Sequence record: AP018932
Origin: Escherichia phage KIT03
Strand: one strand, 5' to 3'
Length of the DNA stretch: 64,000 nt
Shown: piece after piece, positions 15,203 to 45,158 of the stretch
Numbering within the stretch: the first letter of the stretch is position 1
How the letters are laid out: each line of letters opens with the position of its first letter
Notes under the pieces: model-generated
What the model was told of the DNA's origin: nothing
The model's input: the letters and a program-made list of their open reading frames with translations, nothing else
Databases searched by the model: none
Made by a program: the position numbers and the translations under genes

Positions 15203-15460
15203 TTAACCACCAATACCTGGAGTTGGCGTAACAGTCCAAAGACCTTCATTAGCAGTGATCCATTCAGTACGCTGATTTTCTTCATATACTGTAGAATATG
15301 CTGCTTTTTCAGAAGGGAATGTCTGATAATGAGCACCAGAAATTTTGTGAACATCAGAATAAAGAGGGAAAGCTACAGAAATTTCTTTACCCTGAATTGT
15401 ACCACCATCAACTGCTTGGTCAAATGTTTTGATATTAACATAACCGCGAGTACTAGCCAT
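15203..15460 (-). CDS. soc: small outer capsid protein Soc
   Basis: 85-aa ORF beginning MASTRGYVNIKTF with FPLYSDVHKISGAHYQTFPSEKAAYSTVYEENQRTEWI, matching recalled T4 Soc. Confidence 0.9.
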   Translation of the reverse strand: MASTRGYVNIKTFDQAVDGGTIQGKEISVAFPLYSDVHKISGAHYQTFPSEKAAYSTVYEENQRTEWITANEGLWTVTPTPGIGG

Positions 15461-15476: not shown

Positions 15477-15686
15477 TTAAATTACATGATTATTTATAAT
15501 AAATTCTCGCGGAACGTTAAAATATCCGATTTTAGTTAATATAACAACATCACCATTAATAATTACCGGAGAATAATCTTCTGAAGCATTAAATTTCCAA
15601 TGGGCTCTAATATTATATCCATCAGAACCAAATGCTCGACTAGCCGTTCTCCCGGCTTTTTGCCATGCATAAAAATCAAATTTCAT
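15477..15686 (-). CDS. hypothetical protein, 69 aa
   Basis: ORF. Confidence 0.45.
   Translation of the reverse strand: MKFDFYAWQKAGRTASRAFGSDGYNIRAHWKFNASEDYSPVIINGDVVILTKIGYFNVPREFIINNHVI
15491..15498 (-). promoter_or_regulatory. late promoter TATAAATA for soc
   Basis: exact TATAAATA on minus strand about 30 nt upstream of soc ATG, followed by AAGGAGA RBS. Confidence 0.6.
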
Positions 15687-15886
15687 TTTGAATGCTCTAT
15701 AATTAATTTTAAGGCTTCTTCACGCACCAACTTGTCTAATGGTATATGCCCAGTTTTAATTGTGTAAGCTTTGTGGAGCTGATTAGATAAGAGCTCGTAT
15801 GTGAGCTCTTTGTCATAATCTTTAAATAGCTGGTCAATACGTTTCTTGCGGGCTTTCTTAAGCTGGCGTTTATTTAAACGAGCCAT
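15683..15886 (-). CDS. hypothetical protein, 67 aa
   Basis: ORF. Confidence 0.45.
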   Translation of the reverse strand: MARLNKRQLKKARKKRIDQLFKDYDKELTYELLSNQLHKAYTIKTGHIPLDKLVREEALKLIIEHSK

Positions 15887-16404
15887 TAATAGCCTCTGTC
15901 TTGACGAGCGAAGTTTTCAGCATTTTTCAGATAATAAAGTTTAAATATTTCTTCAGCTGACATTCCAAGAGCAATAAATTTATTCATGAAAAAGTGAAAT
16001 TGGTCAATCAGTTCAAATTTAATTTCAAGCTGATCTTCAGGAGATAAGTCTTGAATTTTCTTGGATTGCATTTCAGAATAACGTTTCTTCCAAGGTTTCC
16101 ATACAGCAGAAGCTTCTTTTTCACCATTACTCATACCACCAAGAGAAGTATATAGCTCGCGAGTTTCGTCTGCGATATAATCGTCTTGGTTTCGCAGCCA
16201 AGCAAGAACTTCTCCTGCAGTTTCAAGTGAATCAGGATGACGATTTGTTTCTGGTTTATCATTAGCCAAACGAATCTGTAAATGCCGCTGCATGTCAAGC
16301 ATAACCTGCAATGGGTCAATACTGTGCATAATATACTCAGCATATGCACGATTTGCTTTATCAACACCTTCGATCAAATGAGCACATTCGTTAAAGTAAG
16401 CCAT
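15886..16404 (-). CDS. 56: dCTPase/dUTPase gp56 (MazG-like)
   Basis: start set to ATG at 16402-16404 (172 aa, close to recalled T4 gp56 171 aa); ORF-track N-terminal extension is antisense of a plus-strand ORF. Confidence 0.75.
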   Translation of the reverse strand: MAYFNECAHLIEGVDKANRAYAEYIMHSIDPLQVMLDMQRHLQIRLANDKPETNRHPDSLETAGEVLAWLRNQDDYIADETRELYTSLGGMSNGEKEASAVWKPWKKRYSEMQSKKIQDLSPEDQLEIKFELIDQFHFFMNKFIALGMSAEEIFKLYYLKNAENFARQDRGY

Positions 16405-16438
16405 TATTTTTCCTTTCAATTCATGGGTTAGTAGATTA

Positions 16439-16462
16439 ATTATACAATAAATATATAAAGCA
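16439..16462 (-). promoter_or_regulatory. middle (MotA-type) promoter for gene 56
   Basis: minus strand TGCTTTA - 11 nt - TATAAT. Confidence 0.5.
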
Positions 16463-16475
16463 ATAAGGAGGACAT

Positions 16476-16676
16476 ATGGTACAAAAATTAATGGCACTTG
16501 TTAATGCCATAAAAGGTAATAAAAAACGTATAGCTTTTACTATTTCTGCTATGGTAGGAATTTTACTCTGGAACTTTATTTTATCACCAATTGCAATTGC
16601 ACATGGTGTTAATATTCCAGTAGTTACTCTTGATACATTCGTAGATCTAGCATTTGCTTTAGTTGGGTTAATTTAA
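16476..16676 (+). CDS. small hydrophobic protein, 66 aa, on the opposite strand
   Basis: AAGGAGG 4 nt before ATG; two hydrophobic segments; sits in the otherwise non-coding 56-61 interval. Confidence 0.4.
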   Translation: MVQKLMALVNAIKGNKKRIAFTISAMVGILLWNFILSPIAIAHGVNIPVVTLDTFVDLAFALVGLI

Positions 16677-17701
16677 ATCTTAGCATATTTAGATAGCCGC
16701 ATTTTAGCCATCAACCCCTGGGCAATATTATTTTTCATATATTCCATAATTTGTTCAGGGGTTGCACCTTCCTTTCTAATCATATCATTGACATCTTTTG
16801 ATTTCCAGGGAGATTTATCCCAAAACATAACCCTTTCTCCTGCATCAACTAATTTAGTCATTCGCTTGATAGTGTCAGGGTGACGAGGTTCATTATCTAA
16901 AACCCACACTCGTCTATCTTTAAATGGAACAACTTCTAGGTCTAATTGACCGCCAGTAATGGCTATACCATTTTCAATAAAAAGTGAATCGATAGGTCCT
17001 TCTAGAACATATACATCACCATCTTTAACTCGTTCAACACCGTAAATTTTTGTTGCCTCAGGATAAGCTTTAATGGTGATATATTTTTGAGGAGCATCTT
17101 TCTTTAATGCACGTCCTTGAAAAGACTCAGCTTTTCCATTAGCATTATAAATTGGAATAACAAGACGAGGCTCAGGAATTTCCTTTTTGTATGTTCCTGG
17201 TGCTATGCTATTAACTAATTTAGGCCATTCGGTTGTAAACCAAAGATATTTCCATTTATCCTTTGGAATACAACGAGCTTTTACGTATTTTATAATTGGA
17301 TGGTCTTCCGCCAGTTTATCTAATCTAACACATGACGGAAGAGATTTAATTATTTTCTTCTCAGGTTGTTTAGGAAGTTCTTTAGGTTTTTCTACTGGAC
17401 GACTTTTACCTTTTTCTTTTCTTATTTCAAAGATATACTCACGATATAAATCGGGTTCAAACTCCTTTAAATATATTCCGATTGGTGCATGATAGTTACA
17501 GTTATAACAATGAATATTTCCTTCATTATTATCACCATAATACCATCCACGAGCTTTATTTTGGTCGGTTTTTGAATCTCCACAAACAGGGCATCTAAAC
17601 CGCAATTTAAAAGTTGAACTATTATTTACTTGTGTGAATTTAGGTAAATGAGCTAATGCACGGTATGCAAACTCATTATCAATCCAAGGTATTGATGACA
17701 T
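16673..17701 (-). CDS. 61: DNA primase gp61
   Basis: 342 aa equals recalled T4 gp61 length; N-terminal zinc ribbon CPVCGDS...CYNC. Confidence 0.9.
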   Translation of the reverse strand: MSSIPWIDNEFAYRALAHLPKFTQVNNSSTFKLRFRCPVCGDSKTDQNKARGWYYGDNNEGNIHCYNCNYHAPIGIYLKEFEPDLYREYIFEIRKEKGKSRPVEKPKELPKQPEKKIIKSLPSCVRLDKLAEDHPIIKYVKARCIPKDKWKYLWFTTEWPKLVNSIAPGTYKKEIPEPRLVIPIYNANGKAESFQGRALKKDAPQKYITIKAYPEATKIYGVERVKDGDVYVLEGPIDSLFIENGIAITGGQLDLEVVPFKDRRVWVLDNEPRHPDTIKRMTKLVDAGERVMFWDKSPWKSKDVNDMIRKEGATPEQIMEYMKNNIAQGLMAKMRLSKYAKI

Positions 17702-17702
17702 T

Positions 17703-17868
17703 TTTACTCTTCTTTTTCTTTAGATTCCTCTTTTTTCTTTTTAGGAATCTGTTCAGGACCTTTATTTACTACAGCACCCGACGTTGTTCCAGTAGAGATA
17801 TTTTCAGGATTACCACCTGAATCTCCAGCTACCATATCTTCTTTGATAAATTCTTTATATGTTTTCAT
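17703..17868 (-). pseudogene. small ORF with capsid-targeting-sequence-like N-terminus (MKTYKEFIKE), interrupted by a frameshift in an A4 run
   Basis: frame from ATG 17868 stops at 17752; removing one A restores a 54-aa ORF ending next to the gene 61 start. Confidence 0.3.
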
Positions 17869-17910
17869 ATTAACCTCTATTCATAAAAGCATTAAAAATT
17901 TGGTCATCAA
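17861..17910 (-). repeat. about 45-nt direct repeat, copy 1 (3' end of gene plus junction)
   Basis: catattaacctctattcataaaagcattaaaaatttg... nearly identical to 18221-18269. Confidence 0.7.
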
Positions 17911-18226
17911 TCAATGGAATAGCAACTTTTTCTGCATCATTTAGCAAATCATTAATTTCATCAGATAGCATAACACATGTATCTTTATTTCCTGTAATTG
18001 TTACTGCGCAATTACGAACATTTTCTTTATTAAATTTTAGGTTAATATTTTCGTAATGAAAATCCTTTAATGCTGAATATATTTTTAAAATAAAATTGTC
18101 TTTTACTACAATAAACCCAACCTCACTATTAAAACGTGGCTCATGGAAACTGTAATAAACCTTTTCATCTATAAAATCGTATGAAATTTTTTCCATTTTT
18201 AAATATGAAAATTCAGAACTATACAT
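17870..18226 (-). CDS. hypothetical protein, 118 aa, C-terminus DDQIFNAFMNRG
   Basis: ORF; shares C-terminal tail with next gene. Confidence 0.5.
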   Translation of the reverse strand: MYSSEFSYLKMEKISYDFIDEKVYYSFHEPRFNSEVGFIVVKDNFILKIYSALKDFHYENINLKFNKENVRNCAVTITGNKDTCVMLSDEINDLLNDAEKVAIPLIDDQIFNAFMNRG

Positions 18227-18269
18227 ATTAACCTTTATTCATAAAAGCATTAAAAATTTGATCGTCAAT
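18221..18269 (-). repeat. about 45-nt direct repeat, copy 2
   Basis: matches 17861-17910 with 3 mismatches. Confidence 0.7.
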
Positions 18270-18854
18270 AGAAACTTTTACTTTAGGCTGTTCTTCAAAC
18301 GGTAATTCATATCCACATATTACAATTTTGTGATCGATACCAAAATGCACAGAAGCAATATGATTAATGTTATTTTCAGTAAAGTCTAAATCAACATCAA
18401 TATCTTTTTGACCACAGCCCAAAGGATAAATAATGCGAGTAATTCGATTATCTTTAACAAAGATTCCACCGACATACTCTGTGCTGAGTTTAAAGTCTAC
18501 ACGCCGACGAAATGAAAAATATTCAGGCTCTTTATGAGCTCGGCTCATAGGACACAACGAGTAACTAGAATAAGAGATGTCAAATCCTACACCTTCAATA
18601 TGAGCCAAAGTATTACGATTAAACCAATTATAATCGTACGCCAAATCCATTAGATTATAATATGTAAAAGGCACCGGATTAACATCATTAGTCACAAGCA
18701 TGTAATTAGCAACTGCTATAATTTCATTGTTTTTAACGAATACAAACCGTGATTGATGCGAATGACCTGGACCCGCGTTTTCACGATTAATGATATAACA
18801 CTGGGCACCTTTATATTTGTATGTATCTTTGCACTTGTGCATTTGATAGAGCAT
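18228..18854 (-). CDS. hypothetical protein, 208 aa, C-terminus DDQIFNAFMNKG (T4 61.2 position)
   Basis: ORF; paralogous tail. Confidence 0.55.
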   Translation of the reverse strand: MLYQMHKCKDTYKYKGAQCYIINRENAGPGHSHQSRFVFVKNNEIIAVANYMLVTNDVNPVPFTYYNLMDLAYDYNWFNRNTLAHIEGVGFDISYSSYSLCPMSRAHKEPEYFSFRRRVDFKLSTEYVGGIFVKDNRITRIIYPLGCGQKDIDVDLDFTENNINHIASVHFGIDHKIVICGYELPFEEQPKVKVSIDDQIFNAFMNKG

Positions 18855-44495: not shown

Positions 44496-44618
44496 ACCCC
44501 ATCTCCATATCAATTAAGTCATTTATCGTCGGTTCATTATATACTGTTTCTTCATCAGTATAAACCGGTTCTTCCGGCTCTGGCTCTACTGTTTCCCATC
44601 TAGCCGCCCACCAAGGTT

Positions 44619-44929
44619 TTATAGCGTAATCCATTCTCGTACTGTCTGAGTTACTACACGTTCACGGGGCTCGACTAGTTCAACAGTCGGAACTGCATAA
44701 TACCAGTCAGAATGATAAGAACCTGACCGAGATTCATTTACAGACACATGAACGTTATGTTTTGGACTAAAATAAACACACTGACGATATTGGCATTTGC
44801 CGTCTTGCACCCAGTCTTCTATTTCGACAGGTTTAAGATAATCCGAAAAATCGAAATCATAATTTCTGAAAATGCGTCATGGTCTTCGATGATTTCACTC
44901 AGAACTGCATCAACATCTAATTTATTTTC
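44619..44929 (-). pseudogene. ORF of about 103 aa split by a frameshift in a T4 homopolymer run
   Basis: ATG frame 44929-44807 and downstream frame to 44619 overlap; one extra T at 44869-44872 would fuse them. Confidence 0.3.
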
Positions 44930-44948
44930 AATAGTCATTTGTCACCAA

Positions 44949-45158
44949 TTAATTTCGCAATTTATTAAGTTCTTCATAATCAATCCAGGATTCTAGTCCT
45001 GATGGCAAATCAGATTCAATTTCCCAAAGAAGCTCTTCAATTTTCTGAAGACGATCTAATTCTTCGGCTGGAATAGTAACCATTGACGGAGTTCTTGATA
45101 CACTAATATCGTAAATCATATTTACCCCAGTTTGACCATGCAATCGCCATATTTCCAT
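44949..45158 (-). CDS. hypothetical protein, 69 aa
   Basis: ORF. Confidence 0.45.
   Translation of the reverse strand: MEIWRLHGQTGVNMIYDISVSRTPSMVTIPAEELDRLQKIEELLWEIESDLPSGLESWIDYEELNKLRN

Follow-up and report, generated by a model that had tools for sequence, protein, structure and literature searches.

The plus-strand gene ORF66 between genes 56 and 61 of T4-like phages: a conserved coding sequence for a predicted membrane protein at a locus polymorphic for dam

In phage T4 the dam gene is located between genes 56 and 61, whereas in the DNA analysed here (a stretch of 64,000 nucleotides, referred to as the window) these two genes are separated by an interval of 268 nt (positions 16405-16672). 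This locus raises the questions whether the small plus-strand reading frame in the interval, referred to as ORF66, is a genuine gene, whether it takes the place of dam, and when and where its product might act. Over positions 15800-17800 the window is about 98% identical to the phages slur07, RB18 and phiD1, and it represents a Tequatrovirus (T4-like coliphage). Gene 56 (minus strand, 15886-16404, ATG at 16404) encodes a dCTP/dUTP pyrophosphatase of 172 aa (phrog_173, E=4.6e-44), which is annotated as dCTPase in RB18; a GTG-extended version of this frame reaching up to 16497 in the ORF list is spurious. Gene 61 (minus strand, 16673-17701) encodes the DNA primase of 342 aa (phrog_47, E=7.9e-107). 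On the other side of gene 56, two small soc-proximal ORFs (15477-15686 and 15683-15886, one of which is called soc.2 in RB18) and soc (15203-15460) are located, all of them on the minus strand.

ORF66 (plus strand, 16476-16676) encodes a small putative membrane protein of 66 aa. Its ATG is preceded by the Shine-Dalgarno sequence AAGGAGG (16465-16471, plus strand) with the 4-nt spacer ACAT, and no competing minus-strand frame was found within 16405-16672. The convergent stop codons of ORF66 (16674-16676) and gene 61 (16675-16673) share the TTAA at 16673-16676, and this 4-nt overlap also occurs in ST0, STP4-a, Ursula and KLB31. The layout given in an earlier reading of the sequence alone, which had described the 268-nt gap with a hydrophobic 66-aa ORF and an AAGGAGG 4 nt from the ATG, was thus confirmed. 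The same reading had named ORF66 the only convincing plus-strand gene, and a crude gene map of the whole window likewise contained no other plus-strand ORF with a ribosome-binding site. About 600 nt of the window (44514-45121) are poorly covered by long minus-strand ORFs; an 82-aa plus-strand ORF at 44748-44996 has no ribosome site, consists of low-complexity sequence and looks spurious.

ORF66 matched the profile of phrog_2024 with an E-value of 1.5e-31 (residues 2-66 on positions 1-65 of 65) and is an already catalogued member of this family of unknown function. By tblastn, homologs were detected in 691 phage records, 501 of them with at least 90% identity, and nearly all are annotated as 'hypothetical protein'. 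Proteins with 100% identity are annotated in BYEP02, L14, NBEco003, UFV-AREG1, SfPhi01 and PYps11T, and RB18 labels the ORF as 'similar to RB69ORF029w; RB32ORF030w'. With the latter two members of the family ORF66 shares the position, the orientation and a single predicted transmembrane segment, which was placed at residues 21-41 of RB69ORF029w (Nolan et al. 2006, PMC1524935). A profile search against 1.84 billion representative proteins yielded only 8 matches at E<=0.001. Two distant members, traced by tblastn, belong to T4-like phages of Klebsiella, Salmonella, Citrobacter, Enterobacter and Escherichia. One of the 8, the entry P0076 of a public protein collection, was rejected as a distant homolog; it equals the translation of ORF66 from Met6 onward (window 16491-16676) with every C changed to T, and it looks like the assembly of bisulfite-type reads of T-even DNA and not like a real variant.

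Pairwise dN/dS ratios (NG86) within the family were between 0.10 and 0.40 in most usable pairs, for example 0.14 between the window and L011 (8 synonymous vs. 4 non-synonymous differences), 0.13 between ST0 and L015 (13 synonymous vs. 6 non-synonymous differences) and 0.19 between STP4-a and Ursula. Higher ratios were obtained for P8 and TH40 (0.73, calculated from 9 differences) and for the window and Bp7 (0.62, at saturated distances). The frame, the length of 61-69 aa, the start context and a residue motif are conserved in the family; in the alignments the motif W-N-[FYL]...P...G...P...[DE] is retained down to about 30% identity. Judged by these patterns, ORF66 is a genuine protein-coding gene under purifying selection. 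Expression data on ORF66 or other members of the family were not found in the literature searched.

The T4 reference record (NC_000866) shows the order soc - segF - 56 - (oriA) - dam - 309-nt unannotated gap - 61. A copy of ORF66 is present in this gap (NC_000866 17738-17938; L002 4239-4439), and the encoded protein is 97% identical to that of the window, but the reference record does not annotate it. A newer automated annotation of T4 (OZ209057) does call the ortholog. RB69ORF029w was grouped by Nolan et al. 2006 with the analysed ORFs without T4 orthologs (PMC1524935), whereas T4 does encode an ortholog, which is unannotated. In T2 the order is 56 - dam - T2_032 - ORF66 homolog - 61. A plus-strand homolog flanked by genes 56 and 61 was located in at least 8 genera; the phages concerned belong to Tequatrovirus, Mosigvirus, Gaprivervirus, Dhakavirus, Jiaodavirus, Gelderlandvirus and Kanagawavirus, and an unclassified Citrobacter phage is also among them. 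According to this gene order, ORF66 is an ancestral, syntenic component of the 56-61 region in enterobacterial T4-like phages.

A role of ORF66 as a replacement for dam could be ruled out. T4 and T2 carry dam and ORF66 together, so ORF66 is no stand-in, and dam is an extra cassette. The comparison with T4 and T2 bore out the lack of dam that the sequence-only reading had proposed for this locus. The window and the 56-dam-61 region of T4 share genes 56 and 61, ORF66, and the middle promoter P(M)16.53 together with its leader. What is missing in the window is the dam cassette (about 0.9 kb) in comparison to T4 and 1417 bp including T2_032 in comparison to T2; in addition, segF, which in T4 lies between soc and gene 56, is replaced by the two small ORFs. 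No homolog of SegF was found across the 64-kb window.

In the blastn comparison, the homology between the window and T2 or T4 breaks exactly at 16464|16465, just 5' of the Shine-Dalgarno sequence, and on the gene 61 side (16465-17800) the DNA is 97.5% identical to T4. Gene 56 itself shows 95% DNA identity to T2 but 73% to T4, and the adjoining gene 61 shows 97% to both. This sharp mosaic boundary at gene 56 is in keeping with the marker exclusion that SegF is known to drive around gene 56 of T4.

The sequence-only reading had further placed dam, gene 69 and an origin in this interval of T4, and had concluded that the phage appears to lack them at this locus. This was correct for dam, which in T4 lies between genes 56 and 61; a tblastn search of the 64-kb window with T4 Dam gave no homolog (best E=0.65). 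Gene 69 was misplaced. In the record X01416 (Macdonald and Mosig 1984), 'gene 69' begins at the present start of gene 56 and runs through the present segF, i.e. it is gene 56 fused to segF, and segF, which targets gene 56, is located between soc and gene 56 (PMC2988022). A loss of the origin was not supported either. The annotation of T4 places oriA 22 nt into gene 56 (NC_000866), and the oriA primer RNA is thought to arise from a MotA-dependent promoter upstream of gene 56; evidence for R-loop formation or replication priming from the promoter transcript is only partial even for T4 oriA (PMC3016281). Since this MotA-dependent promoter and the leader are retained in the window, the origin determinants known from T4 do not appear to be obviously lost here.

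A comparison with other genomes showed that the dam-less arrangement is no peculiarity of this phage. The contiguous dam-less junction of the window occurs in 321 of 473 Tequatrovirus records (about two thirds), about 150 records match only from 16465 onward (query position 66), and a T4-type Dam with at least 90% identity is present in 182 records. Furthermore, the 56-61 locus is devoid of dam in Mosigvirus ST0, Yersinia phage P8, Gaprivervirus TH40, Jiaodavirus KP185, Gelderlandvirus STP4-a, Citrobacter phage Ursula, Kanagawavirus KLB31 and Dhakavirus Bp7. As dam is missing at this locus in every other genus examined, outgroup comparison points to the dam-less state as the ancestral one. Judged by these records, dam at the 56-61 locus is a common presence/absence polymorphism, of which the dam-less state is the majority form. 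A separate observation concerns the tetranucleotide GATC, which is the most depleted 4-bp palindrome of the window (79 observed vs. 214 expected from trinucleotide counts, ratio 0.37; the next most depleted palindrome is TCGA with 0.60), despite the fact that the window contains no dam.

The cassettes adjoining ORF66 differ between the phages and comprise dam, dam together with the 181-aa T2_032, homing endonucleases on either side, and MazG-like genes. They were located at L003 1365-1910 (T2), L024 1-330 (fPS-2), L005 2280-3047 (P8) and L023 1972-2727 (Bp7), and further sites beside ORF66 homologs are L021 1493-1777 and L022 1453-1746. With such varied neighbours, both ends of ORF66 behave as insertion hot spots.

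A MotA-dependent middle promoter of gene 56 is predicted on the minus strand at 16439-16463. It consists of the MotA box TTGCTTTA (16463-16456), an 11-nt spacer and the -10 element TATAAT (16444-16439) and corresponds to the definition of such promoters, in which a MotA box (a/t)(a/t)TGCTT(t/c)A lies about 12 bp upstream of a sigma-70 -10 element. Matches to the MotA-type pattern occur 19 times in the window vs. 6.3 times expected by chance, and 15 of the 19 are on the minus strand. In the aligned region this promoter is the positional equivalent of T4 P(M)16.53, which is linked to oriA priming and for which X01416 annotates a mot box and a -10 element; the identical sequence in fPS-2 is called a 'predicted middle promoter' by its annotators. 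The MotA-type promoter proposed in the sequence-only reading was thereby recovered, but it lies 13 nt upstream of the start of ORF66 and not inside the ORF.

Inside the spacer of this promoter, the plus strand carries the late-promoter-like box AATAAATA (16446-16453), a variant of TATAAATA with A at position -13. It lies 22 nt before the ATG of ORF66. From this putative gp55-type late promoter, transcription would start near 16459, which predicts a 17-nt leader containing the ribosome site, and ORF66 protein would then be made late, from a transcript running against the direction of the early and middle genes around it. ATAAATA occurs four times on the plus strand of the 64 kb, and only the copy at 16446-16453 is followed by a Shine-Dalgarno sequence and an ATG. 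Among the variants of T4 late promoters, those with A at -13 are the most frequent (9 of 50 listed sites; PMC2988020), and conservation of this position across T4-like phages is poor (PMC1524935).

The perfect box TATAAATA is present only three times in the window, on the minus strand with 5' ends at 15498, 57122 and 63572. These copies precede soc, a gene starting with MLQLTEKQL and a lysozyme-like gene, respectively, and each lies 20-30 nt upstream of a Shine-Dalgarno sequence and ATG. Judged by their boxes, these three are late genes that lie within the early region. Soc, a late gene of the T4 type, resembles ORF66 in its small size, its location among early and middle genes, a TATAAATA-type box and a leader of 20-30 nt with Shine-Dalgarno sequence. 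It differs in that soc is located on the minus strand behind a perfect box, whereas ORF66 is on the plus strand behind the A(-13) variant, the activity of which is putative.

Upstream of the ORF66 homologs, NATAAATA was found in 10 of 12 lineages. The box is present in dam-plus and dam-minus contexts, the upstream sequences of which are non-homologous. In the window and RB18, AATAAATA falls within the spacer of the middle promoter that serves gene 56; the same box occurs in the dam-less ST0. T4 and T2 possess GATAAATA beyond dam (17709-17716 in T4, with a predicted start near 17722). Among the other dam-less phages, P8, TH40 and KLB31 have CATAAATA, KP185 has two boxes (GATAAATA and CATAAATA), Bp7 has the perfect TATAAATA, and STP4-a and Ursula have only ATTAAATA. 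Set against Bp7, the dam cassette of T4 seems to sit precisely between the MotA box and the late box. A 'potential' early promoter, P(E)16.82, is annotated inside dam on the minus strand of X01416 (L017, 1246-1274) and, from a distance of about 650 nt, would point towards the ORF that the T4 record leaves unannotated; it might be a second promoter in T4, but has no bearing on the window, which lacks dam.

The minus strand further shows a terminator-like hairpin in the 5' part of ORF66 (16481-16510), in which the stem-loop 16510-16491 is followed by UUAAUUUUUGU, with the U-rich tail TAATTTTTGT (dG -8.9 kcal/mol, z=-2.8). For the identical sequence, the annotators of fPS-2 assigned a minus-strand terminator to the initial 49 nt of the ORF. 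An equivalent hairpin was not seen in the folded sequences of Mosigvirus, Yersinia phage P8 and Dhakavirus. The hairpin looks like a weak candidate terminator for transcripts of gene 61. Conserved mRNA structure at the start of ORF66 was not significant.

The ORF66 product is predicted to be a single-pass inner-membrane protein which is made late and has its N-terminus in the cytoplasm. Residues 1-18 contain 5 Lys/Arg and no acidic residue and form a basic amphipathic helix. They are followed by a transmembrane helix at about residues 19-42 with the conserved W32-N33-F34 and P38, and by a turn at H43-G44; the Kyte-Doolittle maximum (19-residue mean) is 2.02 at residues 23-41. Residues 43-66 contain 2 Asp and no Lys/Arg, include a short acidic hydrophobic C-terminal helix (52-63) and end with AFALVGLI. 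An AlphaFold2 model based on the family alignment contains helices at 2-13, 16-42 and 52-63 (mean pLDDT 76.7). The charge bias (+5/0 vs. 0/-2) and the positive-inside rule lead to the predicted topology, in which the basic N-terminal helix would be cytoplasmic, residues 19-42 would span the membrane, and the acidic C-terminal helix would be periplasmic or located at the membrane interface.

Searches for related proteins gave no lead to a function. ORF66 had no match in Pfam even at E<=10, and PADLOC, which contains defence and anti-defence models, reported nothing. With NCBIfam, only noise was obtained, namely matches of two distant members to AaeX (15.8 bits vs. a cutoff of 82) and to a YSIRK signal. 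Foldseek searches with the AlphaFold2 model found only members of the family in BFVD and nothing in the PDB. Holins, the T4 antiholin RI and Imm are, like ORF66, small proteins with one hydrophobic helix and a likely location in the inner membrane, but no sequence or fold similarity to ORF66 was detected.

The following explanation is proposed for these observations. The ancestral 56-61 region would contain a late gene for a single-pass membrane protein, and the dam genes of T4 and T2 would represent a cassette between the middle promoter of gene 56 and the late promoter of ORF66. The invariant Trp-Asn in the middle of the membrane and the Pro might mediate helix-helix association, either as self-oligomerisation or as docking on a membrane partner. 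The protein would then be a small modulatory subunit and no enzyme, and could take part in a late envelope process, e.g. lysis timing, lysis inhibition or the response to superinfection. Taken as a whole, the explanation by an ancestral late membrane protein gene and a dam polymorphism is the one towards which we lean, if only slightly. Its late-promoter part is weakened by the boxes of STP4-a and Ursula, which are limited to ATTAAATA, by the late-promoter prediction for RB69, which has no site before RB69ORF029w, and by the missing plus-strand terminator after ORF66. The role in an envelope process is its weakest step, a guess that we regard as rather doubtful, and binding to a partner is suggested by the conservation pattern only.

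Other explanations of the locus have to be weighed against this one, and they concern the function of the protein, its time of expression and the coding capacity of the interval itself. ORF66 might be a holin- or pinholin-like lysis effector, which oligomerises via its transmembrane helix and depolarises or permeabilises the inner membrane late in infection. The protein is small, hydrophobic and probably late, has a conserved polar Asn in the middle of the membrane and possesses at least one predicted transmembrane domain, as expected for a holin, and one homolog with 91% identity, from phage OE5505, bears the name 'Holin' in UniProt. This name, however, is a submitter label without an underlying model and was rejected as unsupported, and no holin match was obtained in Pfam, NCBIfam or PHROG. 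The highly charged, hydrophilic C-terminus of holins is absent from ORF66, the tail of which is hydrophobic and acidic, and the charge layout is the reverse of that in a typical holin. Moreover, ORF66 lies among the replication genes 56 and 61 and in no lysis cassette, the lysozyme-like gene of the window being located about 47 kb away. T4-like phages already possess the holin T and the antiholins RI and RIII, which also counts against a further holin. Such a function is consequently considered unlikely.

Equally improbable in our view is a translation of ORF66 in the early or middle programme, from an unrecognised plus-strand promoter or by other means, with ATAAATA as a mere by-product of the AT-rich promoter on the opposite strand. 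In the window the box does lie within the spacer of the minus-strand middle promoter, where a high AT content would be no surprise; from the upstream base composition, ATAAATA would occur by chance in 24 positions with a frequency of about 3%, and the late-promoter HMM of Nolan et al. 2006 called no site upstream of RB69ORF029w, the homolog in RB69 (PMC1524935). Against this stand the middle-promoter spacers of T4 and T2, which lack the box although a separate GATAAATA occurs just before the ORF, and the perfect TATAAATA of Bp7, which is located outside the spacer. In addition, no sigma-70-like promoter was found on the plus strand in 15800-17000, and all early and middle transcripts of T4 run counter-clockwise (PMC2988020), which corresponds to the minus strand here. 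It would be still less probable, and we give it hardly any credence, that the interval is purely regulatory DNA (a terminator of gene 61, the promoter and origin region of gene 56, and a late RNA antisense to the primase mRNA) with an incidental reading frame. Such a view could draw on the hairpin within the 5' portion of ORF66, on the middle promoter of gene 56 abutting it, and on the search for a plus-strand terminator after ORF66, which found none up to 21.2 kb, so that late transcription would continue into gene 61 in the antisense direction. It is at odds with the purifying selection at the amino acid level across genera, the DNA of which is about 68% identical or less, with the conserved frame, length, start context and motif, and with the hairpin, the conservation of which does not extend beyond Tequatrovirus. 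The plus-strand transcript could still be regulatory in addition to coding.

Returning to the preferred explanation, a late membrane protein gene beside a polymorphic dam, the modest added value of this analysis is that the reference annotation of T4 misses a conserved gene and that a conserved late-promoter box occurs within the early region. In the T4 reference NC_000866.4, the 309-nt 'gap' between dam and gene 61 holds a conserved gene, which is preceded by a late-promoter-like box of its own. Work based on the reference gene list is blind to ORF66, with consequences for knockout collections, expression arrays and proteomics databases. As one of the very few plus-strand genes in the early region, ORF66 would also be a test case for late transcription against early operons. 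ORF66 is missing from the T4 reference gene list and thus from gene-by-gene screens. In a far-reaching version of the explanation, ORF66 would encode an overlooked, near-universal late membrane protein of enterobacterial T-even phages that has so far been lacking from the account of a classic envelope phenotype, e.g. lysis timing, lysis inhibition or superinfection signalling, and the interleaved late and oriA middle promoters of dam-less phages could also couple late transcription to the shut-off of origin priming. This version appears to us a long shot.

Beyond gene 61, the two minus-strand ORFs at 17870-18226 (118 aa) and 18228-18854 (208 aa) both end in the C-terminal motif DDQIFNAFMN(R/K)G. 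In RB18 this pair is labelled as gp61.2 and as an ORF with 'some similarity to gp61.2'. Since T4 has a single gp61.2, the pair represents a local paralogous duplication.
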